Assembly: GCA_963762145.1 (NCBI GenBank)
Contig: CAVXJS010000007.1
Location: 1 to 64,000 of the forward strand
Direction: 5' to 3'
Source of the DNA: an uncultured Candidatus Rokubacteria bacterium
Lineage (GTDB): Bacteria; Methylomirabilota; Methylomirabilia; Rokubacteriales; CSP1-6
DNA length: 64,000 bases
How positions within the stretch are numbered: the stretch's first letter is position 1; each line of letters opens with the position of its first letter. The translations under genes were made by a program, and so were the position numbers. Shown here in pieces: positions 1 through 3,883 of this stretch. The notes beneath the pieces were generated by a model. That model saw only the letters and a program-made list of their open reading frames with translations. It was not told the DNA's origin and did not search any database.

Positions 1-738
1 TCGGGAGGCCGAGATACGACAGCGCGATCGCGGCGATGGAGACCGCCAGCATGGCCACGTAGCCGACGAACGCCACCGCCATGGCCGGGACCCCCGCCCC
101 CTGGCCGAAGATGACCGTGGTCAGGTAGGCGGCGAAGGCCGCGCACCACGCGCCCAGGGCGAGGTTGCCCTTGGCCAGCGCGATGGCCATGGTGACCAGG
201 GCGGCCAGCCAGAGTGTGTCGCGCAGGATCATGACCCACGGCTCGCTGTTGCCGAGCCAGAGGATCGGCAGCACGATTCGCCGGGTGCCGGGCCCCCCGC
301 CGACCTTGGCCGCGTGCTTGCGGGTGCACCGGAGCCCGCTACGCCGCCGCATGACGCGCACGGCCTCGGTGGTCGCGCGCGAGGCCACGTTGTGGGAGTT
401 GTTCAGCTTGTCGGGGGTGATATCCGGCGGAAACTTGGTGATCGCCTTGTTGGTCTCATCGGTGAAGTCCTTCTTGCTGACGGTGACGTCGTAGCTTCCC
501 GGGCTGAGCCCGCTGAACGTCACCTCCCCGTTGCCGGCGGTGAGCTGAGGCTTCGTGCTCGTCGGTCCGCTGATGCTGACCTCGACGCCGTTGAACGGCC
601 GGTCCGGCGAGCGGGTGCCGAGCTTGAGATCCGTGTCCCAGCACAGGATCTGCAGGTAGACCTTCACCTTCAGGGTGCCGTCGGTGCACGGATGGCAGAT
701 CTCGTCGGGCGGAGCGGTCTCGGAGCCGGGCGGCTCAT
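1..738 (-). CDS. Putative T6SS-type cargo/effector (3' end off window): CxxC, transthyretin/carboxypeptidase-regulatory-like domain, then multiple TM helices
   Basis: Not in the ORF track because it has no stop in the window. Manual translation gives PPDEICHPCTDGTLKVKVYLQ...GNGEVTFSGLSPGSYDVTVSKKDF...TLWLAALVTMAIALAKGNLALGAWCAAFAAYLTTVIFG...AVAFVGYVAMLAVSIAAIALSYLGLP, open to base 1. ATG 738 overlaps the DUF4123 stop but is 1 nt out of frame (probable indel); the nearest in-frame start downstream is GTG 667. Confidence 0.7.
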
Positions 739-1652
739 CGCGCCGCCGCTTGCCGGGAGGCGAGCCGGTCGCGGATCCCTTCCAGCACCGCGCGGCGCTG
801 CGCCTCGGCCGCGCCCTGCACCAGGGCCTCGTCGTCGCCCCCGAATCCGAGCACGAGCGCCTCGGCCAGCGTCGTCACGTCGCTCCCGGCCCGAAGGCCG
901 AGGGTGAGGCCGAGCGTCCGGGCCCGGACGACGGTGCGCGCCACGTCCTCGTCGACGCGGCCCTCGAGCGCGGCCGGGAACTGCTCGCGGAGCCAGCGCA
1001 CGCAGCGCGCATCGTACCGGGCGAGCGCGTCTTGTCGCAGGATTGTCTCGTGGCGCTCGGTGAGGCGGAAGGGATCGGTGGCGCTCGGAGGTCGGACGTC
1101 CGCGACCGCGCCGGCGGGCGGCCGCAGCGCGCGGAAGCTCGGCGTACCGTCGGGCCCGCGGCTCTCGAGGACGAAGAACGCCTGGACCGGCCCGAAGAGC
1201 TGCGCGCGCTCGGACTCGGTGGATCCCGCGAGCAGCGGCGGCAACACGCGGGAATCGTAGAAGCGTAGGTAGTTCCGGGCGCCCCGAGGGTCGAGCACCA
1301 GCAGCAGGCGGCGGAAGTGGGTCTGGAGCTCCTCGAGGGTGGCGTTCGCGAGCACGAATACCGCGCTCTCGAGCAGGTCGGGGCCGACGGCCAGCCAGAG
1401 GGGAAGCGGTCCCGGCAGCACGACGCGCGCGATCGAGGGCATGACGTGCCCGAGCGTCTCCTCGGCCCCGGCCCGGTAGAGTCCGAGGGCGGGGACGCCC
1501 AGCTCTCGCAGCATCACGGAAAGGTCGGGGATCCGGGCGCCGTCGAGCAGCGCGAAGAGGCGGCCGTCGTCGTGGCCGCAGAGGTCGGCGAGGACCGCGC
1601 GAAGGGCGTTTGCCGGCGGCGGCTCGTCGGTGGGCGGCTCAGTGATGGCCAA
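735..1652 (-). CDS. DUF4123 domain protein (T6SS effector chaperone/adaptor, Tec/Tap family)
   Basis: Motifs LFALLDGARIP and HFRRLLLV..RGARNYLRFYDSRVL are typical of DUF4123; the gene overlaps the PAAR gene end. Confidence 0.85.
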   Translation of the reverse strand: MAITEPPTDEPPPANALRAVLADLCGHDDGRLFALLDGARIPDLSVMLRELGVPALGLYRAGAEETLGHVMPSIARVVLPGPLPLWLAVGPDLLESAVFVLANATLEELQTHFRRLLLVLDPRGARNYLRFYDSRVLPPLLAGSTESERAQLFGPVQAFFVLESRGPDGTPSFRALRPPAGAVADVRPPSATDPFRLTERHETILRQDALARYDARCVRWLREQFPAALEGRVDEDVARTVVRARTLGLTLGLRAGSDVTTLAEALVLGFGGDDEALVQGAAEAQRRAVLEGIRDRLASRQAAAR

Positions 1653-2163
1653 ACGGGCAGTGCTCCACGAGCGGTGTGCCCTCCGCGGCGGCGGCTTTCA
1701 GCGCGAGCGACTGGGGCGTCGAGGGCGCCTTCGGCGCCTGGGCGGCGGCGATCGAGGCGGCCTGCATGCTGGCGAGGTTCGTCGCCGCCGCGGTGCGCGT
1801 CGAGGGGATCGCGCTCGCCGAGGGCATCGCGGCGGCCGGTCCCGCCGCCCACGGCGTCTCGCCGATGATGACGGTGGGACAGCCGACGGCGATGGGATTC
1901 ACCGGCCCCATGGCCGAGCCCGGCTTCTCCACCACGATGTCGAGGACGCGGCAGGCCATCTGCATGTTGATGAACACGTTGATGCTCCCGACGATCACGC
2001 AGCCCACGCCGTCGGCGCCGCTGATGCTCGTGGCCGGACAGGCGTGCTGGTCGATGTTGGTGCGCCAGGCCGGCAGGCCTCCGATCAGGGTGTTGGGGCT
2101 TCCCGGCCCGGGCAGGAGCGGGCTGCCGTGCGTGGTCTGATCCTTGATTCGCGCCGCGGGCAT
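1639..2163 (-). CDS. PAAR domain protein with Ala-rich linker and C-terminal tail
   Basis: MPAARIKDQTTHG..GSPNTLIGGLPAWR..HAC..GSINVFINMQMACRVLD..GCPTVIIG, then a ~70-aa extension ending QSLALKAAAAEGTPLVEHCPFGHH. Alternative start at 2172. Confidence 0.9.
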   Translation of the reverse strand: MPAARIKDQTTHGSPLLPGPGSPNTLIGGLPAWRTNIDQHACPATSISGADGVGCVIVGSINVFINMQMACRVLDIVVEKPGSAMGPVNPIAVGCPTVIIGETPWAAGPAAAMPSASAIPSTRTAAATNLASMQAASIAAAQAPKAPSTPQSLALKAAAAEGTPLVEHCPFGHH

Positions 2164-2232
2164 TGCGGGCATGCTTGCCGAGCATCTTCCTCCGGCGCGG
2201 GCCCAGCGTCAATATCATCCCGGCGGCGGGAG

Positions 2233-2997
2233 CTACTGGCCCAGGCGGGTGAGCGCGAAGCGCACCGGCTCCGACGACACCTGGATCAGGCCGTCGAACG
2301 GTCCGTCCATCTCCAGGGTCAGGAAGACCGCGCCGGCGACCGAGAGCGCACAGAGGATCAGGACGGCGAGCACGGTGGCGTTCGCCGGCGCCTGCAAGCC
2401 GAAGCTCGTGAACGTGATCGTGAGCCAGAACACGAGCACGATGAGAAACGGCCAGGGGATCGCGGTGCCGAGCTCGCCCAGCACGACCCACCGCGATCTC
2501 AACACGGTCTCGGCCTGATCGGAGGCACGAGATTGCAGCGACCGCTGCGCGGCGGTCGACGGCGTCATGGCACGGATCTGGTCCACGATCCATTCCGCCG
2601 TTTCCGATTCCTTGTTCACGGCCAGTTTCGGGCCGTCTCGGGACGGATCGTCGCTCCAGATCTCGTCGATCCGGCGGGCCACGACGCGCTTCAAGGTCTC
2701 ACGGATATCCTTCGTCTCGGGTCCATAGCGAGCCAGGAGGCGATCAGTCGCGATCACATCGGCGGCCATGCTCCTGATCGACGTGTTCAAGGTGTCGAAG
2801 GAGCTCTTGGCCGAGGCCGTCATCAGGCCGAGGACCAGCGCGGTCAGCGTGGCGACGAGCCCGATCCCGAGTCTCACCGTGTCCCGGGATTCATCGCGGA
2901 GATGCTCGGGCGGCAGGGTCGCGCGCAGCCACATCCCGAACAGCGCGCCCGCGAGGGTGCACACGAACACGATCATGCCGATCCAGAGCGGCTTCAT
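2233..2997 (-). CDS. DUF4239 / bestrophin-like membrane protein
   Basis: GIGLVATLTALVLGLMTASAKSSFD and LTLEMDGPFDGLIQVSSEP; about 4 TM segments. Confidence 0.8.
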   Translation of the reverse strand: MKPLWIGMIVFVCTLAGALFGMWLRATLPPEHLRDESRDTVRLGIGLVATLTALVLGLMTASAKSSFDTLNTSIRSMAADVIATDRLLARYGPETKDIRETLKRVVARRIDEIWSDDPSRDGPKLAVNKESETAEWIVDQIRAMTPSTAAQRSLQSRASDQAETVLRSRWVVLGELGTAIPWPFLIVLVFWLTITFTSFGLQAPANATVLAVLILCALSVAGAVFLTLEMDGPFDGLIQVSSEPVRFALTRLGQ

Positions 2998-3103
2998 CGG
3001 TACCTGGTCAGGGTAGGGAGGGCCTGGACGGCTGTCCATAGGACCAAAGGCCCATCGAAATCCGCTTGCCCGTGCGCTGCCGTCTTTGATCTAATCGCGG
3101 GCC

Positions 3104-3883
3104 ATGATCTACACCCTGTTCGGCCTCGGGCTGGCCGTCGCGCTGTTCGGGGCGCTGCTGTTGCTCATCGAGTGCGGCCGGCGCATCGGAGGCTGGGCGC
3201 TGGCCCGGGATCCCGTCGGAGCCCGTGCGGGGTCCGGCATCGTCGACGGGGCGGTGTTCAGCCTCCTCGGGCTGCTCGTGGCCTTCACCTTCTCCGGGGC
3301 GGCGGCGCGATTCGACACGCGACGGGCGCTCATCGTGGAGGAGACCAACGCCATCGGCACCGCGTACCTCCGCCTCGACGTCCTGCCCACCGCCGCCCAG
3401 CCGCTCCTGCGGGATCGGTTCCGCGAGTACGTCGAGTCGCGGCTGGCCGCCTATCGCGCGGTGCCCAACATGGCCGCGGTCCGGGCCGAGCTGGCGCGGA
3501 CGGCGAGGCTCCAGGAGGAGATCTGGCGCCGCGCGGTGGCCGCGTGCGGCGAGCCCGGTGTGCCGCCGTCCACCGCGACGCTCGTGTTGCCGGCGCTCAA
3601 CGCGATGATCGACATCGTCAACACCCGGACCATCGCGGGCCAGACCCATCCGCCGCTGGTCATCTTCGTGACGCTCATCGGGCTGGCACTCGTGGGCGCG
3701 CTGCTCGTCGGATACGGGATGGGCGGCGCGGGCTCCCACAACTGGGTCCACATGATCGGCTTCGCCCTTGCACTCGCGGTGGCGATCTACGTCATCCTCG
3801 ACCTCGAATATCCCCGCCTCGGGCTGATCCGTGTCGACGAGTTCGACCTCGCGCTGGAGGAGCTGCGCCAGACCATGAAGTGA
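3104..3883 (+). CDS. DUF4239 / bestrophin-like membrane protein
   Basis: FSLLGLLVAFTFSGAAARFDTRRALIVEETNAIGTAYLRLD and ILDLEYPRLGLIRVD. Confidence 0.85.
   Translation: MIYTLFGLGLAVALFGALLLLIECGRRIGGWALARDPVGARAGSGIVDGAVFSLLGLLVAFTFSGAAARFDTRRALIVEETNAIGTAYLRLDVLPTAAQPLLRDRFREYVESRLAAYRAVPNMAAVRAELARTARLQEEIWRRAVAACGEPGVPPSTATLVLPALNAMIDIVNTRTIAGQTHPPLVIFVTLIGLALVGALLVGYGMGGAGSHNWVHMIGFALALAVAIYVILDLEYPRLGLIRVDEFDLALEELRQTMK

Follow-up and report, generated by a model that had tools for sequence, protein, structure and literature searches.

Modules comprising a PAAR protein, an adaptor of the DUF4123 family and an effector are textbook type VI secretion system (T6SS) components. In the PAAR4-TecT/co-TecT-TseT system of Pseudomonas aeruginosa (Burkinshaw et al. 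2018, as presented in PMC11582642) TecT binds the extension of PAAR4, and according to the account of Colautti et al. 2024 (PMC11582642) a helix-turn-helix at the C-terminus of the spike protein is bound by the conserved N-lobe of DUF4123, and the effector by its variable C-lobe. Here we consider a three-gene cassette of this type at the very start of a stretch of DNA from an uncultured Candidatus Rokubacteria bacterium. By the window we mean this whole analysed stretch of 64,000 nucleotides, which corresponds to positions 1-64000 of contig C7 (CAVXJS010000007.1) of the source genome G000 (assembly GCA_963762145.1; 6.26 Mb in 25 contigs, completeness 88%, contamination 5.4%). Since the window starts at position 1 of C7, its first base is the contig end. 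In our best explanation, to which we assign a probability of roughly 0.75, the cassette would be the spike-tip loading module of the genome's single T6SS, carrying a membrane-tethered, peptidoglycan-cutting cargo. That it constitutes a T6SS PAAR-adaptor-effector module we regard as highly probable, and we somewhat favour the more specific view that the cargo is a membrane-tethered peptidoglycan endopeptidase acting in the periplasm of the target cell.

As far as PAAR4-TecT-TseT is described in the source cited, the present locus shares with it an extended PAAR protein, a DUF4123 adaptor binding (here by prediction) the extension, and a separate effector, all encoded by a single operon that lies apart from the main cluster. 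It differs in having one bilobed adaptor in place of the split TecT and co-TecT, and in its effector, which, unlike the soluble DNase TseT, is an M23-fold protein with six hydrophobic helices and has no adjacent immunity gene. According to the list of open reading frames (ORFs), the cassette occupies positions 1-2172 of the minus strand and encodes the PAAR protein with its tail, then the DUF4123 adaptor and then the 5' part of the cargo gene. In the following list, as in the text, cargo residues are numbered after P0009, a 573-aa protein from another assembly which is identical to the window cargo at 237 of 243 positions (98%; residues 4-246).

1639..2172, minus strand: PAAR protein, 177 aa; domain approximately residues 1-105 followed by a 72-aa C-terminal tail; PF05488
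1642..1719, minus strand: residues 152-177 (..PQSLALKAAAAEGTPLVEHCPFGHH), the conserved C-terminal stretch of the PAAR tail; proposed to dock with the DUF4123 N-lobe and the N-terminal peptide of the cargo
735..1652, minus strand: adaptor of the DUF4123 family (Tap/Tec type), 305 aa, with its Pfam domain at residues 32-151 (window 1200-1559)
1..738, minus strand: effector (cargo) gene, 5' part, residues 1-246 of approximately 573; ATG at 736-738; cut at the contig start
344..679, minus strand: N-terminal beta-sandwich of the cargo, CarboxypepD_reg-like, P0009 residues 21-132; strands from the AlphaFold2 (AF2) model
2..238, minus strand: cargo hydrophobic helices 1-3 of six, P0009 residues 168-246 (helices 168-189, 193-211 and 213-239)

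An earlier sequence-only reading of the window had described three overlapping minus-strand genes, the first of them encoding a PAAR protein with an extension of about 70 aa. The PAAR and DUF4123 genes do share 14 nt (1639-1652), whereas the cargo gene overlaps that of the adaptor only if it starts at the ATG at 736-738; the extension, 72 aa beyond the domain end near residue 105, has the length proposed. Both of the families named in that reading were recovered by profile searches. The PAAR protein matches PF05488 (PAAR_motif) with 40.5 bits against a cut-off of 27 when the window proteins are compared with Pfam, and with 30.6 bits in a genome-wide scan, where it is the sole PAAR match in G000; the NCBIfam model T6SS_PAAR_dom yields 18.9 bits, far under its cut-off of 124. 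PAAR-like motifs are found in the translation at residues 5-8 (PAAR), 34-37 (PAWR) and 72-75 (MACR), and on inspection the translation contains no hydrophobic block. The adaptor matches PF13503 (DUF4123) with 66.6 bits (cut-off 25.8) over profile positions 1-119 of 119, again as the sole match in a genome-wide search. The three genes of the cassette are also present in the same-genus relatives G011 and G015, with adaptors 76-77% identical to that of G000. The adaptor gene of G015 (L016, G015:C676, 10,200-11,108) contains a single in-frame TGA and is split in two in the L019 scan with hidden Markov models (HMMs), reflecting either a broken gene or a sequencing error.

Two further readings of the PAAR protein were set aside. 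An AF2 model built from an 8-row alignment was discarded (mean pLDDT 37.6), and the tail helices drawn in it (128-144, 153-163) are given no weight. Residues 6-15 form an AARxxDxxxH-like string, in which A6, A7, R8, D11 and H15 are invariant, and which may resemble the prePAAR motif; the protein, having neither a transmembrane domain (TMD) nor an Eag chaperone, was not assigned to the prePAAR class.

The injection machine that the sequence-only reading had placed elsewhere in the genome was located by whole-genome family searches and a scan of the ORFs on contig C11. A single T6SS cluster with 12 core families occupies approximately 180.4-205.5 kb of contig C11, in the order FHA-fused TssM, TssK, TssA, TssB, TssC, Hcp, TssE, TssF, TssG, ClpV, VgrG, methyltransferase, Ser/Thr kinase and TssL-OmpA. 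Whole-genome family searches find TssC, Hcp, VgrG (one match) and TssG on C11 only. For these families the statement that the 64 kb contain no VgrG, Hcp, sheath or baseplate gene stands; TssE, TssF and TssK were seen on C11, no separate search of the window having been made for them. The phage-type sheath PF04984 has no match in G000, and on this ground an origin from an extracellular contractile injection system (eCIS) or a phage tail was rejected. In a set of 61 genomes, made up of G000 and 60 others from its order, the DUF4123 protein was found in three, G000, G011 and G015, all of which have TssC, and TssC was found in four, the fourth being G026, where the T6SS is present but the cassette was not found. 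Since the set includes many incomplete genomes that are also related to each other, the figures are to be taken as counts and not as statistics. In G011 as in G015, VgrG and PAAR occur once each, the PAAR being that of the cassette. As the cassette likewise provides the only PAAR match of G000, its PAAR protein is probably the tip of the genome's T6SS machine and not merely an auxiliary one; of the 'auxiliary toxin-delivery module' proposed earlier, the delivery module for a machine encoded elsewhere is retained and the epithet dropped. In the open-access full text searched we found no paper linking T6SS to Rokubacteria or Methylomirabilota; the Rokubacteria-like lineage guessed for the host in the sequence-only reading fits.

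The surroundings of the machine contain further genes. In C11:177,064-206,814 the FHA domain is fused to the N-terminus of TssM, a Ser/Thr kinase with a BON domain lies beside TssL-OmpA and a lysine-methyltransferase-like gene follows directly after VgrG, with caspase-Sel1 and DUF4384 proteins encoded upstream of the T6SS and an autotransporter after TssL. Control of T6SS by threonine phosphorylation is known from Pseudomonas, and by analogy the presence of the kinase together with the FHA domain suggests that a similar control may operate here.

The cargo belongs to a small family. A word-indexed search of 5.8 billion clusters yielded 23 relatives, and HMMER over 1.84 billion representatives yielded 174 matches at E < 1e-30, a large share of them giant proteins with Ig repeats that match the beta-sandwich only; by our own reading of the list the family-specific clusters among these representatives are of the order of 20-40. 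NCBIfam, with which the PAAR fusion described below and a long variant were also run, gave nothing for the cargo, and its sole matches among the window proteins, to Tla1 and PAAR models, are far below threshold. According to the record titles, the family is distributed over Methylomirabilota, Acidobacteriota (Bryobacterales, Solibacter), Nitrospirales, Nannocystaceae and Krumholzibacteriota. Homologous loci were obtained from species genomes (15) and from metagenomes (22), the former being scanned with Pfam and both sets with our own HMMs for PAAR, DUF4123, VgrG and cargo; five loci beginning inside the cargo gene (L025, L040, L054, L055, L056) were set aside, leaving 32 that could be assessed.

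In 28 of these 32 loci PAAR, DUF4123 and/or VgrG genes stand beside the cargo gene, or PAAR is fused to the cargo, so that homologues of the cargo do adjoin the genes expected by the sequence-only reading. The order of the window, PAAR-DUF4123-cargo, is accompanied by a DUF4123 match in 21 further homologous loci: it recurs in 12 (L018-L023, L031, L035-L038, L042) and is preceded by VgrG in five (L030, L043, L046-L048; three of the five carry the same proteins), while in four the contig ends within the DUF4123 gene (L039, L044, L049, L051). VgrG lies directly upstream, with no adaptor, in six loci (L026-L029, L050, L052), and in Nitrospirales (L024) a 700-aa PAAR-cargo fusion is followed by VgrG. 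The cargo is thus genetically linked to T6SS spike genes across phyla. Taken together, the domain matches, the T6SS on C11 and this linkage support the proposal, made from the letters alone, of an effector-loading module for a contractile injection machine. Among these loci, L051 also contains a PAAR-like ORF (3196-3519), which is encoded on the cargo strand and follows downstream at a distance of approximately 1.1 kb, an arrangement not seen in the others. In L020, L021 and L023 (2982/2987-4529/4534; Bryobacterales and Solibacter) a 515-aa gene precedes the PAAR gene, its product in L023, the sole copy scanned with NCBIfam, matching a model of the CehA/McbA family of metallohydrolases.

How the cargo might be coupled to the spike is indicated by two conserved elements. 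In each of the eight aligned PAAR proteins of DUF4123-containing cassettes, from three phyla, the tail ends in 26 conserved residues, with the motif ..PQSxALxxAAxEGTPLVE[KH]CPYADH and the invariant residues Q154, L158, A161, A162, G165, V169 and C172; the PAAR moiety of the L024 fusion is without this motif. At the other end of the joint, an N-terminal CxxC-T is present in 9/9 DUF4123-linked cargos inspected (window/P0009, L015, L016, L020-L023, L030, L031). The CxxC is missing at the aligned place in 5/5 adaptor-less cargos of Nannocystaceae (L026-L029, L032), two of which have other Cys residues at the very start, and the PAAR-cargo fusion keeps a single Cys.

The multimer model suggested in the sequence-only reading was built from three chains, namely DUF4123, cargo residues 1-165 and PAAR residues 100-177, with the tail scored as partner. 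It gave ipSAE values of 0.85, 0.85 and 0.82 against 0.03 for the best control, at least 76% of the contacts agreeing between runs and the pLDDT of the partner being 60-64. The mark applied is reached by 116/157 solved complexes and by 2/215 mismatched pairs, counts that hold only roughly here because our own alignments and three chains were used. Tail residues 157-173 are predicted to contact DUF4123 residues 37-52, 66-70, 80-89, 118-140 and 197-213 together with cargo residues 13-21, a prediction which supports a placement of the tail motif on the N-lobe of DUF4123, beside the CxxC peptide of the cargo. The model matches the published rule for the DUF4123 N-lobe, and its score may therefore partly reflect likeness to known complexes, so that the suggested joint is one of predicted binding. 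A similar arrangement is described for the VgrG-Tap6/Tap14-effector modules of P. aeruginosa in PMC11582642, the PAAR tail being modelled here on adaptor residues 37-140, but there, as far as that account goes, the docking extension belongs to VgrG and not to PAAR. One could further speculate that C172 of the tail and the CxxC of the cargo share a metal.

The nature of the cargo is best seen from P0009, whose AF2 model (26-row alignment; mean pLDDT 84.4, pTM 0.79) comprises a beta-sandwich (21-132), six helices (168-189, 193-211, 213-239, 250-269, 278-300 and 311-344) and a beta-rich C-terminal domain (366-543). The blocks of the sandwich have pLDDT values of 79-95, and its match to PF13620 (30.6 bits) is under the cut-off of 32.3. 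In a profile search of solved structures the whole cargo retrieves mainly Ig-like repeats (NOMO2), with M23 chains at E 0.005-0.7; with the C-terminal domain alone the best M23 match reaches E 8.7e-6. Foldseek against the PDB assigns this domain to LytM-type M23 domains with probability 1.00 and target-normalised TM-scores of 0.6-0.65, the matches including the LytM domain of DipM, zoocin A, ShyA, StM23, lysostaphin, EnpA and LytM. Distant members of the family exceed the Pfam M23 cut-off of 28.7 (P0027 31.8, P0041 41.5 and P0166 51.1 bits). D392, H455, H499 and H501 are invariant in 26 sequences; in the profile alignment H499-L-H501 and H455 fall on the PHLHF and Y-x-H of solved M23 enzymes, and D392 aligns to the Asp of the M23 HxxxD. 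By these models and alignments the cargo is an M23/LytM-fold peptidase with an ExxxD...H...HxH site and six hydrophobic helices, its activity being predicted. Some longer relatives (P0043, P0044, P0048, P0050, P0088; 607-1067 aa) contain in addition Pfam Ceramidase PF05875, a seven-transmembrane (7-TM) hydrolase domain, which in P0050 interrupts the M23 domain immediately ahead of the HxH motif, there reading RLH.

T6SS effectors with M23 domains have been described before, as Tpe groups 4, 14, 18, 24 and 29 of Acinetobacter baumannii (PMC6833914) and as Tse2 of Aeromonas veronii (PMC11014884). Like the present cargo, they are VgrG-linked and carry Peptidase_M23, and they are predicted or, in their case, shown to attack peptidoglycan. 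In the accounts given by these sources M23 is combined with LysM, NlpD or lysozyme-like domains, no transmembrane block being reported, and it is by this description that they are set apart from a cargo with a beta-sandwich, six helices and ExxxD. The survey of nine proteobacterial genera in PMC11582642 distinguishes, as presented there, five DUF4123 neighbourhoods (Rhs, Tle, alpha/beta hydrolase, MIX and MATE), none of them M23, and a literature search for DUF4123 together with M23 brought up, in the portions available, only surveys of Proteobacteria. Against viral models Foldseek matched phage M23 lysins, tape-measure proteins and internal proteins. The cargo resembles phage tape-measure and internal (ejection) proteins in combining hydrophobic segments with M23 in a device-delivered breacher of the envelope, but the matches cover the M23 domain only, with whole-chain TM-scores of 0.1-0.2.

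The six helices have mean hydropathies of 0.9-2.3 and 0-2 charged residues each (helices 1-3: mean Kyte-Doolittle hydropathy 1.7-1.8, 0-2 charges each). The loops that would cross the membrane, KGN, LSYLGLPKPN and AGGSLGSPQG, are short and nearly uncharged, and charged segments are found before helix 1 (seven K+R) and in the loop after helix 4 (GRR). With an even number of helices, the beta-sandwich and the peptidase would both stay on the delivery (periplasmic) side, and the uncharged crossing loops, together with charges and soluble domains all on one side, fit an insertion of three hairpins from that side. In the mechanism we propose, the PAAR domain would cap the sole VgrG trimer, encoded on C11, and the conserved end of its tail would dock on the conserved N-lobe of the DUF4123 adaptor, such that adaptor and tail would jointly hold the extreme N-terminus of the cargo with its CxxC-containing peptide. 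Contraction of the sheath could then drive PAAR and cargo into the envelope of a neighbouring cell, where the three helical hairpins would insert into the membrane and the M23-type peptidase, tethered next to the peptidoglycan, would cut cross-links, the secreted cargo presumably serving an antibacterial purpose. The prePAAR/Eag effectors (Ahmad et al. 2020; PMC11582642), as described there, carry N-terminal TMDs within the PAAR polypeptide, shielded by Eag. The cargo shares with them hydrophobic helices which need to be kept soluble before firing and are thought to insert in the target membrane; in contrast to them, its helices are central and reside in a separate polypeptide served by a DUF4123 adaptor, and the Eag chaperone (DUF1795, PF08786) has no match in G000, a genome 88% complete.

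Loaded by the same module, the six-helix region could alternatively be the toxin itself, acting as a pore or ion leak in the inner membrane of the target, with the M23 domain only binding or locally opening the peptidoglycan. Membrane-disrupting T6SS effectors are known, and an almost uncharged set of helices with W, F, G and R positions invariant across phyla would suit such a function, as would the ceramidase-like 7-TM domain within the M23 domain of long relatives, which points to a membrane-centred role. The variant ExxxD site could mean weak catalysis or none, and the missing periplasmic immunity gene is equally puzzling under either reading. Yet the remaining M23 residues D392, H455, H499 and H501, which degenerate LytM factors lose, are kept without exception in the 26 sequences, which argues for selection on catalysis, and we hold a toxic helix region to be distinctly improbable.

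Several observations weigh against a peptidoglycan-cutting cargo delivered by the T6SS. The Pfam M23 scores of close relatives are just under the cut-off of 28.7 (P0001 26.6, P0002 28.2 bits), and in all 26 sequences the first zinc-ligand His of HxxxD is replaced by an invariant Glu (E388-x3-D392), so that HxxxD as such is absent and peptidase activity is not assured; the invariance of E388 nevertheless indicates a conserved variant and not a decayed site, and an invariant His, H379, is situated nine residues upstream of E388. The six hydrophobic helices would have to be kept soluble, but the genome search revealed no PF08786 chaperone, and DUF4123 adaptors are described, in the account of PMC11582642, as tethers of soluble effectors. 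Four of the 32 assessable loci (L032, L041, L045, L053) have no spike or adaptor gene upstream, two of them offering only 0.5-1.2 kb of upstream sequence. The related genomes in which co-occurrence was counted are non-independent samples. The cargo is incomplete in the assembly, being distributed over two contigs with residues 247-435 missing, and its C17 piece abuts 1.76 kb of approximately 40% GC. Finally, in three Methylomirabilota insertion contexts no immunity gene was found adjacent to the cassette, housekeeping genes standing next to it, which is the chief objection to reading the cassette as simply antibacterial.

The boundaries of the cassette are well marked. DNA homology between the window and its relatives starts at the start codon of PAAR and ends at the stop codon of the cargo; a third lineage (L037) has the same boundaries, except that its match, like that of L015 with L016, begins as much as approximately 50 nt upstream of the PAAR start. 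The flanks consist in G000 of a bestrophin-like gene and, at the opposite end, a small acidic ORF, in G011, G015, L035 and L036 of a convergent PALP enzyme 17 nt past the cargo stop, and in L037 of a luciferase-like gene and SelD. Since the flanks differ with each context and the homology spans three genes, the moving unit would consist of these three genes without an immunity gene. The sequence-only reading had recommended inspecting the region left of base 1 for the end of the cargo and an immunity gene; the last part of the cargo (residues 436-572) was found on C17, and no immunity gene accompanies the cassette. Directly upstream of PAAR in the window lies a divergent pair of genes for PF14023 Bestrophin-like membrane proteins (2233-3039, minus strand; 3104-3883, plus strand), which are placed outside the cassette because homology with the relatives stops at the PAAR start. 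In other lineages candidates for immunity do occur. A 277-aa leucine-rich-repeat (LRR) protein with a signal peptide is encoded directly downstream of the cargo in acidobacterial loci (L020 8107-8940, L022 3840-4673, L025 1209-2042) and is a candidate immunity protein, as is the beta-propeller protein downstream of the cargo in L027 and L028, the L028 copy having a lipoprotein-like signal. A search of G000 for homologues of the LRR, beta-propeller and 515-aa CehA/McbA-like neighbour proteins found none.

A cassette without an immunity gene could in principle also encode something other than a weapon, namely a membrane-anchored peptidoglycan hydrolase with which the producer opens its own wall for T6SS assembly or firing. 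The TagX protein of Acinetobacter reportedly acts in this way, a peptidoglycan hydrolase required for the biogenesis of T6SS is on record (PMC5061870), and the positive residues before helix 1 and after helix 4 form a positive-inside pattern such as would be found in a resident inner-membrane protein. The positive-inside rule would, however, put the soluble domains of such a resident in the cytoplasm, away from the peptidoglycan. Moreover, a dedicated adaptor, a tail motif that co-varies with the cargo N-terminus and a PAAR-cargo fusion are hallmarks of spike-loaded export, and the cassette is absent from the T6SS-bearing G026. We therefore consider a role in the producer's own wall very unlikely.

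The delivery of a peptidoglycan-cutting cargo presupposes a functional gene, and the state of the cargo gene in this assembly deserves attention. As assembled, the cargo ORF of the window (2-667) runs off base 1, and its first usable start is the GTG at 667, 67 nt past the stop of DUF4123. An ATGA at 735-738 is shared by the ATG at 736-738 and the DUF4123 stop, as cargo starts overlap in relatives, but from this ATG the frame is lost after four codons, the G run at 726-727 being one base short of the conserved reading. The N-terminus of P0009, MSRPGSETAPP, is the one expected from the window with an extra base, and because this 98%-identical protein starts as predicted, the frameshift looks like an assembly error. 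Cargos in relatives have 569-573 aa (569 in G011 and G015). In G000, residues 436-572 are encoded on C17:114569-114977 (minus strand), with frame breaks too, and tblastn found residues 247-435 on none of the contigs. Beyond the cargo piece, the last 1.76 kb of C17 (114,984-116,740; L017 10,244-12,000) has a GC content of 38-50%, approximately 40% versus approximately 69% before it; in this genome of 70% GC, low-GC contig ends are restricted to C17 and, more weakly, C19. This end, which holds an ORF of NUDIX-like appearance (judged by eye), results either from chimeric assembly of the contig or from the insertion of foreign DNA. Also on C17, downstream of the cargo piece (L017 7,256-9,370), a gene extends over several overlapping minus-strand ORFs in different frames; by the look of the translations it may encode a thiamine-pyrophosphate enzyme, and it probably contains more consensus errors.

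Comparable frame breaks affect the machine, tssC being broken up in the G000 assembly into at least four frames and clpV into two. When G000 is compared with G011 over 13 kb (87.8% identity), all frame-breaking indels fall within these two genes, the others being in-frame, compensated within 4 nt or intergenic; the approximately 19 indels of one or two bases are located at C11:187,102-188,262 (tssC) and 193,336-194,564 (clpV), with none in neighbouring T6SS genes. Public runs on soil and rhizosphere metagenomes (8 studies) contain the cassette stretch, wholly or partly, in 20 of the 21 cases listed, and in 7 runs half or more of the words sampled are present. Contigs of four runs from two studies were compared with C11:186400-195600, on the understanding that the runs may include the source sample of the assembly and that contig frames were not rebuilt. 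Between tssC and clpV these contigs match over 1562, 722, 1483 and 2875 nt with 1, 0, 0 and 1 differences, respectively, and no gaps. Across tssC they show 89-92 letter differences and 13 gaps, and across clpV 10-13 letter differences and 3-5 gaps per contig. Among the one-base differences listed (12 out of 23), 12/12 are no more than 5 nt from an indel between G000 and G011. As the run contigs read like G011 at the listed places, the assembly consensus would be corrupted in tssC and clpV, and we conclude, as far as such contigs can tell, that the population probably carries versions agreeing with the intact frames of G011. Real pseudogenisation of tssC and clpV is the less likely reading in view of the run contigs and the indel pattern, and is kept as a minor rival.

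By extension of that rival, the cassette and perhaps the T6SS might be decaying relics in G000, the cargo being truly frameshifted and interrupted, and tssC and clpV pseudogenes. Taken at face value, the frameshift at 726-727, the split of the cargo between C7 and C17 with its foreign-looking junction of 40% GC, and the dispersal of tssC over at least four frames and of clpV over two would be in keeping with decay. But the contigs of the four public runs agree with the flanking T6SS genes to within 0-1 differences across kilobases and yet differ at the tssC and clpV indel sites, and an intact 573-aa cargo, 98% identical to that of the window, exists. A relic thus has very little probability, and a spike-tip loading module is the reading that we carry forward.

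The cargo is an undescribed effector family with no curated family name, for which NCBIfam offers nothing and Pfam near-threshold pieces. What sets this locus apart from the known systems is the architecture of the cargo, its ExxxD variant, the pairing of a DUF4123 adaptor with a polytopic client and a bare three-gene unit without an immunity gene. A complete-looking T6SS is documented here in a few members of one Rokubacteria-like genus of Methylomirabilota, and the cargo family spans five phyla of mostly uncultured soil bacteria. In its most far-reaching form the proposal would describe an integral-membrane T6SS effector with three self-inserting hairpins, a Glu-for-His M23 site and a three-way joint sharing a metal, fired by a producer whose own wall is intrinsically resistant. 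We put this combination forward tentatively and consider it unlikely in its entirety. If it were true, the producer would need no immunity protein, and the reach of DUF4123 adaptors would extend from soluble clients to polytopic membrane proteins.

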